From: an uncultured Bacilli bacterium
GTDB taxonomy: Bacteria; Bacillota_I; Bacilli_A; RF39; UBA660
Length of the DNA: 64,000 bases
Reading direction: 5' to 3'
Assembly: GCA_934102255.1 (NCBI GenBank)
Contig: CAKOSN010000006.1
Coordinates: 11,574-75,573 of the forward strand
Shown: positions 59,426-60,817 of the stretch, in pieces
Position numbering within the stretch: position 1 is the first letter of the stretch
How the letters are laid out: every line of letters begins with the position of its first letter
Position numbers and translations under genes: made by a program
The notes under the pieces: generated by a model
The model's database searches: none
What the model was told of the DNA's origin: nothing
What the model saw: only the letters and a program-made list of their open reading frames with translations

Positions 59426-60817
59426 CTATCTAGTTCTAACGTTAATTTCAATATTATTTAGTTTACAAGCATTTTGAAAATTTTCCAAAAATCTATTTGT
59501 ATCAATATTATATTCTTCTGGTACATCAAACATAATTGTATTCATCATTTTTTCATACACAGCATAAGCTTCATCATACGACATACCTTCTTTTAAATAT
59601 TTTTTAAAATACATATTACAAATATAATCATAAATAGGATAATAAGATTCCTGCGTAGTTTTAATTCTATCATTATGATAATCATTATACTGAAATTGAA
59701 TTAATTCTAATATTTTAGCAGCATTATTCTCTTCATTATTATATTCATCTAACTTGCTAGCATAATAACTAATACTTCTATTAGCATAATCAGTTAAAGT
59801 ATAATTATCTAAACAATCTAACATTACTCTTGTATAATTACTTTGCAATTGATAAGCAATATCATCCTCAGCATAATCAAACAAGCTAACAGCGAATAAA
59901 GAATTTAAAGCCTCAGCTATTACAACATTAGAATAATTTTGTCCTTCACACTGAATACGATATTTTTTATCATTTTCTTCAAAAGAACAACTACGAAGTG
60001 CATGACTTAACTCATGATAAATAACTTGATAATCCCATGTACCTTTTTCATACTTTTTATCTTTTAAAACATATATTTTGTTTTCAAACCTATTATAACA
60101 TCCACTAGAGCTAACACTTAAAGAAGCGGATACTAATTCTCCTTTTGTACACTCCACAATTTCTATCGTTTGTAAATTCTTATAAAATGGTCTTAAATCA
60201 ACATCAGGATATTTAGATGTAACAGCATTTATGTACTCAAGTAATAATGGACGAAAATTATCAGTAATCTTAGAATTGGTTTTAACTGCATTAATTAAAT
60301 CATCCTTGGTAACCTTTTCATTGCCAAAAATCTTGTTTAAATATGTATTATCATATACAAATACAAAACTAGAATTGGTTCCTTCTAAATAAGTATCAAC
60401 TCCTTTTTGTTCCTTGGAAGTCTCTTTAGAAATATAGTTTTCGATATCTTCAATACTCATATATTTAACTGTATTCGAGTTAATTTTAGCGGCATTAATT
60501 CTCTTATTACTTTCATAAATCTGATGAGCAATAGTTATTGTACTTAACGATAAAGCAACAACTATATTCCCAATAATTATCTTCGGAACTAATTTAAACT
60601 TTCCTTTCTTTTTAGTACTCTTGCCATCATTTATAATCAATTCTAAAGCTGGATTATTTAAAACCTCCACCAAATTAAAAAATTCATCAAAAGTTAAATA
60701 GCCAACACTACCATCTTTATTTTGTTTTAAAAAGAAATGTTTATTATTATTATCTAGTAACATTACATATTTTTGATTTTCAAAATAAAATTCTAATACT
60801 TTAGTATATTCTTTCAT
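59426..60817 (-). CDS. Membrane-anchored HExxH (gluzincin-like) protein coupled to essC of module 2
   Basis: Start taken at the ATG with AAGAGG 6 nt upstream (MKEYTKVLEF...; the tracked ORF starts at a TTG at 60844). It has one TM helix (about IIIGNIVVALSLSTITIAHQIY) and the motif VIYHELSHAL followed by VIAEALNSL. Its stop lies 3 nt before the essC GTG. Confidence 0.65.
   Translation of the reverse strand: MKEYTKVLEFYFENQKYVMLLDNNNKHFFLKQNKDGSVGYLTFDEFFNLVEVLNNPALELIINDGKSTKKKGKFKLVPKIIIGNIVVALSLSTITIAHQIYESNKRINAAKINSNTVKYMSIEDIENYISKETSKEQKGVDTYLEGTNSSFVFVYDNTYLNKIFGNEKVTKDDLINAVKTNSKITDNFRPLLLEYINAVTSKYPDVDLRPFYKNLQTIEIVECTKGELVSASLSVSSSGCYNRFENKIYVLKDKKYEKGTWDYQVIYHELSHALRSCSFEENDKKYRIQCEGQNYSNVVIAEALNSLFAVSLFDYAEDDIAYQLQSNYTRVMLDCLDNYTLTDYANRSISYYASKLDEYNNEENNAAKILELIQFQYNDYHNDRIKTTQESYYPIYDYICNMYFKKYLKEGMSYDEAYAVYEKMMNTIMFDVPEEYNIDTNRFLENFQNACKLNNIEINVRTR

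Follow-up and report, generated by a model that had tools for sequence, protein, structure and literature searches.

In a 64,000-nt stretch of DNA from an uncultured Bacilli bacterium (positions 11,574 to 75,573 of contig CAKOSN010000006.1, assembly GCA_934102255.1; hereafter the window), the gene directly upstream of essC2 encodes a membrane protein with an HExxH motif whose probable role is that of a dedicated helper to a pared-down type VII secretion system (T7SS). We use the working name hex for this gene and Hex for its product. On the basis of sequence comparison and structure prediction, we conclude that Hex and its homologues constitute a new family of zincins, with a site of the gluzincin type. 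That Hex is an active ecto-peptidase functionally dedicated to the T7SS is, in our judgement, an evenly balanced proposition, and any particular substrate has less than an even chance of being the right one. The gene and the parts of its product are as follows.

59426-60817, minus strand: hex, membrane HExxH protein of 463 residues (open reading frame and translation)
60650-60817, minus strand: cytoplasmic N-terminal domain (residues 1-56), made of one helix and three strands (AlphaFold2 predicted local distance difference test score, pLDDT, about 90 over residues 1-50)
60521-60586, minus strand: single transmembrane anchor, about residues 76-99, with coordinates given for about 78-99 (hydropathy window 76-98, Lys-rich stretch before it)
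59453-60400, minus strand: extracytoplasmic zincin-like domain, residues about 140-455 (core region common to all 284 clusters; domain-only AlphaFold2 model)
60002-60016, minus strand: HELSH, residues 268-272 with H268, E269 and H272 (sequence; predicted helix 261-275)
59900-59917, minus strand: AEALNS, residues 301-306, with E302 (59914-59912) as candidate third zinc ligand (predicted helix 298-311, after a beta-hairpin at 277-288)

An initial annotation, made from the letters of the window, had read HELSH and an AEALNS about 25 residues later as a gluzincin-like pair. Both motifs are present, but the spacing is longer than had been stated, as E302 lies 30 residues past H272 and 34 past H268. 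Among the 244 homologues of at least 300 residues, H268, E269 and H272 are invariant (244/244), E302 and Y322 are each kept in 240 and N214 in 242, and the conservation of the motif holds down to about 22% identity; the only sequences that lack HExxH are fragments not extending to it. That the catalytic and metal-binding residues are conserved to this depth argues for a family of working enzymes and against a decayed scaffold, and we infer that Hex itself binds zinc and is catalytic. The homologues form at least 251 clusters at 90% identity, all of them unnamed or 'hypothetical' and mostly from metagenome-assembled genomes (MAGs) of gut Bacilli or 'Tenericutes', and at 50% identity the family comprises at least 284 clusters (E <= 0.001), with 92 at E <= 1e-30. 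Searches of Pfam, NCBIfam and PHROGs returned nothing over threshold for Hex, for its relatives or for the N-terminal domain (N-domain) alone, and a profile search of PDB sequences gave no match at E <= 10. Below threshold, the Pfam matches were to zincin families only, namely MPTase-PolyVal (PF18818) in 9/38 members, where the best E value was 0.0029 and the gathering score was not reached, and M78 and Tox-MPTase4 in distant paralogues. The MPTase-PolyVal matches support zincin ancestry and not membership of that family. The Peptidase_M9 profile did not match any of the 38 members even at E <= 10, and no Peptidase_S8 match was found in Hex.

Structure prediction agrees with this picture. The AlphaFold2 model of full-length Hex reached a pLDDT of 87.9 and a predicted template-modelling score (pTM) of 0.88, and that of the ectodomain (residues 135-463) a pLDDT of 94.8 and a pTM of 0.92. 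Two short strands are followed in the model by the HExxH helix (261-275), the beta-hairpin, the E302 helix (298-311) and a helical bundle, with HExxH and E302 on consecutive helices behind a small beta-sheet. As modelled, this order of elements is the gluzincin layout, in which HExxH lies within an alpha-helix and the glutamate on a separate downstream helix. With Foldseek, neither the full-length model (searched against PDB and BFVD) nor the ectodomain model (searched against PDB) had a match at E <= 0.001. The top six hits of the ectodomain were the M9 peptidase domains of ColH, ColG and ColT (E 0.04-0.2, probability up to 0.66, template-modelling score about 0.26), which are 10-11% identical to it, and the next neighbours, also sub-significant, were lethal factor and PepO of families M34 and M13. 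Like Hex, these collagenases carry HExxH on one helix and the glutamate ligand on the following helix, and the His-to-Glu spacing of ColG is about 28 residues (30 in Hex); unlike Hex, they possess activator, PKD and collagen-binding domains. The profile and structure searches that the initial annotation had proposed therefore yielded no family over threshold and only sub-significant gluzincins, and its gluzincin-like label finds backing in a near-invariant HExxH and Glu on successive predicted helices and in neighbours from M9, M34 and M13.

The predicted layout of Hex comprises a cytoplasmic part of about 75 residues that includes the Lys-rich stretch KKKGKFK, one hydrophobic segment at about 76-99 and about 364 residues beyond the membrane, in agreement with the short cytoplasmic part, single transmembrane helix and outer domain of about 360 residues that had been described initially. 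Conserved residues of the N-domain are Y17, D22, F28, F29 and Y40. The N-domain is present in 159/244 homologues, 153 of which also showed a membrane segment (median protein length 469 residues); it is absent from 82/244 (median 413 residues), of which 66 open directly with a hydrophobic signal or anchor, placed at the position equivalent to the Hex anchor. Because a membrane-entry signal precedes the catalytic domain in the homologues and positive charges precede the anchor, Hex is predicted to be oriented N-in/C-out with its catalytic domain outside the cell. In the most distant essC-linked homologues (L037 4764-6239, minus strand; L038 11039-12448, plus strand), the anchor ends in a lipobox-like LTGC about 100 residues in, and in several closer homologues it ends in LLSGC, LLTGC or LLTSC. 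If a lipoprotein signal peptidase used the LTGC of L037 and L038, the N-domain would be cut off and the protease would be lipid-anchored.

The genes around hex form one of two essC modules in the window, and the relevant features are these.

54827-59410, minus strand: essC2 (TIGR03928, 920 bits against a cut-off of 778; EssC1 is 63% identical)
54576-54827, minus strand: EsaB/YukD-like protein of 83 residues, after essC2 and overlapping its end (position, C-terminal NGTELVLL)
52300-54443, minus strand: six genes for small helical proteins in module 2, WXG100-like or unassigned, with products of 119, 106, 162, 119, 110 and 101 residues (WXG100 and ESAT-6 matches)
60853-60902, minus strand: conserved 50-nt block upstream of hex, containing TGTTATACT (extended -10-like; 49/50 identity to 52163-52212)
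47562-52212, minus strand: essC1 and its copy of the 50-nt block, in module 1, which lacks hex (sequence comparison and genome search)

A tie to secretion is indicated by the genomic neighbourhood of hex in other genomes. Relatives of Hex are encoded at 35 loci in GTDB species genomes, 24 of them full-length and 11 short forms. While 21/24 full-length homologues lie directly beside essC and the small-gene set, 0/11 short forms do so; the three genomes with an unlinked full-length hex still encode a bona fide EssC elsewhere, and EssC is absent from two Lachnospiraceae genomes with a short form. Among 301 genomes of the window's own order, in which EssC was counted above the curated cut-off, a strong hex match was found in eight (the window's included), all eight of which have EssC; at least six of the other seven matches lie beside essC or in its cluster, and the seventh is on a short contig. 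Twenty-three complete loci (two more are cut by contig ends) fall into three arrangements.

10 loci: hex upstream of essC on the same strand, as in the window, spacing 4-86 nt
11 loci: hex and essC divergent, spacing 57-179 nt
2 loci: hex downstream of essC and the esaB-like gene, spacing 2.2-2.3 kb

In the two loci with the downstream arrangement, Hex is 23-25% identical to the window protein and EssC 40%. The 23 Hex proteins and the EssC proteins encoded next to them were each placed in a maximum-likelihood tree, and the two trees contain the same clades. The divergent order looks to be the ancestral one, and a co-directional order originated on at least two occasions, once in L035 and once in the clade of nine members to which the window belongs. 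On the far side of hex, no gene family is common to the nine co-directional loci with sequence there (window included), and the widest sharing among the divergent loci is one family in five closely related loci. The essC neighbourhood is thus kept across divergent genomes and rearrangements. Because essC is essentially the sole constant neighbour, the pair was kept through several inversions and the two genes diverged in step, these comparisons make a functional tie between hex and essC much more likely than chance. The initial annotation had asked for a check of co-occurrence with EssC and had held that the association would be incidental if homologues were widespread and never linked to essC. 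Three arrangements, congruent trees and variable far flanks speak for a link that is not incidental, and the proposed refutation is answered in two ways: homologues are indeed widespread and many are unlinked, but the subfamily of about 460 residues is almost always linked.

Several observations weigh against a role of Hex in secretion. The linked loci all come from related gut Bacilli, so their counts are not independent events, and plain vertical co-inheritance would also yield congruent trees. The fold matches are sub-significant, at a best E of 0.04 and a template-modelling score of 0.26. EssC was detected in 143 of the 301 genomes of the order and hex in eight, leaving 135/143 EssC-positive genomes without it, so that EssC systems clearly work in its absence; module 1 likewise lacks a hex copy of its own. 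Moreover, the ectodomain occurs in housekeeping contexts without any T7SS. A 396-residue form that lacks the N-domain lies upstream of rsmH in Blautia and Ruminococcus (L020 10013-11203, plus strand, and also L021 and L025), and in L020 and L021 the gene on the opposite flank is ppdK. The cluster of this form at 90% identity has 1,421 members, which suggests that the unannotated protease is frequent in metagenome data. In a Bacilli MAG from sheep gut (L017), an unlinked full-length homologue is placed between pcrA and ligA. Finally, paralogues of 566-756 residues with N-domain, anchor and zincin domain are found in EssC-less genomes in housekeeping contexts. These long forms (L041 121-2211, minus strand; L042 6111-7811, plus strand; L043 5564-7834, plus strand) have HEMFH or HELVH in the zincin domain, are extended at the C-terminus by about 300 residues and come from genomes of the window's order, two of which lack EssC. 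Absence of the N-domain from the short Lachnospiraceae forms, in EssC-less genomes, had initially suggested that it was a T7SS-specific docking module, an idea that was given up as a firm claim because the 566-756-residue paralogues in the EssC-less genomes G262 and G145 carry it. Neither the N-domain nor the ectodomain is intrinsically T7SS-specific, and there is thus an older Bacillota family of anchored ecto-zincins, one branch of which has become attached to one T7SS lineage. Two further observations concern these outlying loci: in L017 the hex homologue is followed by a gene for a 379-residue Peptidase_C39_2-like protein (11367-12506, plus strand), the two lying together between pcrA and ligA, with an M23 peptidase gene nearby (6780-7568), and in L041 the long paralogue precedes a tandem array of five paralogous genes (2213-6510) whose products are N-anchored and 257-296 residues long.

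The breadth of the family, with its many members outside any T7SS context, together with the shared ancestry of the linked cases and the ease with which vertical inheritance alone gives congruent trees, could mean that Hex is an unrelated housekeeping surface protease, engaged for instance in peptide scavenging or protein quality control in a reduced genome of an auxotroph, that adjoins essC by descent only. We consider this quite unlikely, as the adjacency survived at least three rearrangements, including the downstream move at 23-25% identity, and as what lies on the far side of hex changes from one co-directional locus to the next but essC remains. The short distances to essC (4-86 nt in the co-directional loci, 57-179 nt across the shared region of the divergent ones) also imply that the two genes are co-regulated.

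The organization of hex and essC2 in the window is consistent with a common operon. The hex reading frame is intact, from an ATG at 60817 preceded by an AGAGG ribosome-binding site to a TAG stop at 59428-59426, and we prefer this start to the upstream TTG at 60844 because the homologues share the MKEY with which Hex begins when read from the ATG. The longest essC2 reading frame opens at an alternative start, GTG 59422, which would leave 3 nt after the hex stop, as opposed to 15 nt with ATG 59410. The wider gap is more likely, because the alignment of EssC1 with EssC2 begins at ATG 59410, which corresponds to M1 of EssC1; all relatives align there too. The statement of the initial annotation that hex ends 3 nt before essC2 thus holds only with the GTG and gives way to 15 nt with the aligned ATG. 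No terminator-like hairpin was found between hex and essC2. Both genes lie tightly packed within a single operon. Across nine related co-directional loci, however, the gap varies from 4 to 86 nt, so that strict coupling of translation is no conserved feature, and the coupling that had been claimed was in this respect overstated. ATG 59410 is preceded only by a weak GGGTG Shine-Dalgarno-like sequence; essC1 has AGAGG instead.

Upstream, hex stands behind the same 50-nt block as essC1, as had been noticed at the outset: the second copy (52163-52212) lies immediately 5' of essC1 and matches at 49/50 positions. A promoter scan was uninformative (69 sites against 66 expected in DNA of 27.6% G+C). 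The region's only terminator-like hairpin (52250-52231, minus strand) is located between the last module-2 gene and the second copy of the block, and on account of this hairpin the sequence suggests that modules 1 and 2 are separate transcription units. The two essC modules each carry the same seven small genes, whereas hex is present once in the assembly (1.87 Mb, 75% complete, 27.6% G+C), so that its assignment to module 2 only is upheld. The gene for the 83-residue protein lies directly 3' of essC in all related loci, and a twin follows essC1. Pfam YukD matched neither this protein nor anything else in the window's genome; we assign it as EsaB-like, provisionally, because it ends in NGTELVLL and keeps its constant place after essC. 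The small-protein set of module 2 recurs in every locus with a close hex. WXG100 matches in the genome are confined to the two modules and no LXG protein was recognisable in it, for which reasons the small helical proteins themselves are presumably the cargo. In module 1, the counterpart of a 162-residue protein (45980-46561, minus strand) has weak LXG (E 0.009) and WXG100 (E 0.003) matches and may be a short LXG-like cargo protein.

If Hex serves this system, the next consideration is whether it does so as an enzyme or as a part of the apparatus. The window's genome has no YukC/EssB (PF10140) match at E <= 1 and no EsaA match over the cut-off. Since this assembly is 75% complete, the search was repeated in seven hex-positive genomes that are 91-96% complete, and neither YukC nor EsaA (TIGR03929) gave a match over the cut-off there. 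Hex itself matches none of EssB/YukC (PF10140), EsaA and EssA, and with a single transmembrane segment it is not the large polytopic protein that an EsaA would be, in keeping with the earlier remark that it does not resemble the canonical membrane core parts. EssB/YukC and Hex have in common a gene beside essC and an N-in/C-out single-pass topology. They differ in that EssB has two domains of about 200 residues each, a pseudokinase domain in the cytoplasm and a helical outer domain without catalytic motif, whereas Hex has a cytoplasmic part of about 75 residues and an outer zincin part of about 364, and PF10140 has no match in the eight hex-positive genomes.

Apart from EssC, Hex is nevertheless the sole protein of the module that is predicted to lie in the membrane. 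This fact, along with the absence of EssB and EsaA from the eight hex-positive genomes, the congruent Hex and EssC trees and the conserved N-domain, which is small and cytoplasmic and could touch EssC at its cytoplasmic N-terminal region, accords with a mainly structural function, in which Hex would stabilise or gate the EssC oligomer in place of EssB, EsaA and EssA and catalysis would be dispensable, as reported for MycP. The complete invariance of the catalytic residues speaks for an enzyme instead; a partner of this kind is missing altogether from most EssC-positive relatives, EssC1, which shares only 63% identity with EssC2, has no hex in its own module, and the N-domain is found in paralogues from EssC-less genomes as well. 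We therefore rate a mainly structural function as unlikely. The suggestion of the initial annotation that Hex replaces a core subunit does not hold as a general rule either, given the 143 EssC-positive genomes of the 301 against eight with hex and the want of a substitute in hex-less loci. Two hex-less loci that were inspected (L036 5729-10601 and L040 6687-11556, from the same family) contain essC and an esaB-like gene with no consistent membrane partner, and by gene content look like even more minimal T7SS clusters; L040 also has two small WXG-like reading frames. Because relatives of hex occur in EssC-less genomes and most EssC-positive relatives do without it, hex is a lineage-specific accessory part and not a universal core part. 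A further early suggestion, that Hex anchors an effector, was rejected, as the protein has no LXG or WXG domain, is encoded in a single copy and is conserved rather than polymorphic, and as the genome encodes no LXG protein.

The substrate of an outward-facing peptidase could also be the cell wall, with the ectodomain cutting peptidoglycan stems or cross-bridges for the passage of exports or of the apparatus. Such a function has a precedent in EssH, a CHAP hydrolase recruited by the S. aureus T7SSb and required for secretion (PMC13059805). EssH and Hex are alike as extracytoplasmic hydrolases outside the canonical core and dedicated to the T7SS (as proposed here for Hex); they differ in that EssH is secreted, lacks a membrane anchor and acts on peptidoglycan as a cysteine amidase/peptidase (CHAP), whereas Hex is anchored and predicted to be zinc-dependent. 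Hex faces the wall in its predicted topology, the Blautia homologue lies just upstream of rsmH, the usual head of a division and cell-wall cluster, and FtsW/RodA is encoded in a related locus. The gene that adjoins hex divergently encodes an S11 D-Ala-D-Ala carboxypeptidase (60961-62157); this neighbour is not conserved in related loci, and we rejected it as a pointer to cell-wall function. The nearest folds are those of gluzincins that cleave proteins or peptides, and Pfam scans detected no LysM, SH3b, SPOR or PG_binding module. The known peptidoglycan metallopeptidases (M23, M15 and M74) use motifs other than HExxH plus Glu. Taken with these points, a wall-remodelling Hex seems improbable.

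A different use of an outward-facing protease would be protection, whereby Hex would degrade the cell's own or incoming small toxins delivered by the T7SS and confer a generic immunity. It is encoded at the edge of a cluster with possibly antibacterial cargo and once for two modules, as such a protein might be. Immunity genes of the T7SSb normally adjoin their toxin and vary with it. By contrast, hex is conserved and co-diverges with the motor and not with the cargo, and the genome has no recognisable LXG toxin, which renders this reading very improbable.

On the whole, we favour an enzyme that acts on the exported proteins. We propose that Hex would be an active zinc endopeptidase of a new gluzincin-type zincin family, with a catalytic domain of about 330 residues outside the membrane, and that its branch of about 460 residues may have been recruited as an accessory in one lineage of reduced-genome, uncultured gut Bacilli. 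It would there serve a minimal T7SSb-like system made of EssC, an EsaB-like protein and small WXG-type proteins, without EssB, EsaA or YukC. Co-expressed with essC from one operon or a common divergent control region, Hex would trim, mature or release, at the outer face of the membrane, the small helical cargo exported by EssC. It might also stabilise the EssC assembly, by analogy with MycP, and it presumably associates physically with EssC. The single copy would serve both EssC paralogues in trans; one copy for two paralogues fits a trans-acting enzyme better than a paralogue-specific structural subunit.

The MycP proteases (mycosins) of the actinobacterial T7SSa, whose role in these ESX systems is summarised in PMC11217815, are similar to Hex in having a single anchor and an extracytoplasmic catalytic domain, in being encoded in the cluster next to the EccC/EssC motor and in constituting a membrane part of the enzyme type. 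MycP is characterised by a subtilisin-type Asp/His/Ser domain and a C-terminal anchor, whereas in Hex an HExxH+E zincin domain is preceded by a cytoplasmic domain and an anchor, both N-terminal. The two are unrelated in sequence and fold, and the resemblance is functional only. In addition, MycP is universal in ESX systems, whereas hex occurs in about 5% of the EssC-positive genomes of its order. A bolder proposal would make this a T7SS subtype outside T7SSa-j, in which the zinc protease is the sole membrane partner of EssC and a convergent counterpart of mycobacterial MycP, unrelated to it in mechanism, both holding the EssC assembly and cutting the exported small helical proteins to their active form at the cell surface; we regard this as possible but doubtful.

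The systems described as T7SSc to T7SSj consist of an EssC-type ATPase (TsxC), WXG100 (TsxA) and ubiquitin-like (TsxB) proteins and lineage-specific accessories (Garrett, Higginson and Palmer 2024, PMC11217815). The accessories comprise kinases, phosphatases, FHA and vWA proteins, the Ig-rich TsdI, a beta-propeller protein and an AAA+ ATPase, with no metallopeptidase among them, and the survey, based on RefSeq genomes, names none of the uncultured gut Bacilli seen here (PMC11217815). A T7SS-linked membrane zincin was not found in a search of the literature. New here are the zincin family and the layout of the T7SS, in which the partner is a protease and which the described subtypes do not include. 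The family is sizeable, has no relative in Pfam, NCBIfam or PDB, includes homologues in Blautia, Ruminococcus and Dorea genomes and, with its high-confidence predicted fold, is attractive for structure and substrate work. Which parts besides EssC type VII secretion needs, and how exports cross or leave the Gram-positive envelope, are open questions in the field. With EssC, one ecto-protease, an EsaB-like protein and a fixed small cargo set, the arrangement is among the simplest natural T7SS layouts, and its module of about 8.5 kb is small enough for transfer to a laboratory host. The hex system would thereby let proteolysis at the exit, long debated for MycP, be tested directly as a part of secretion.

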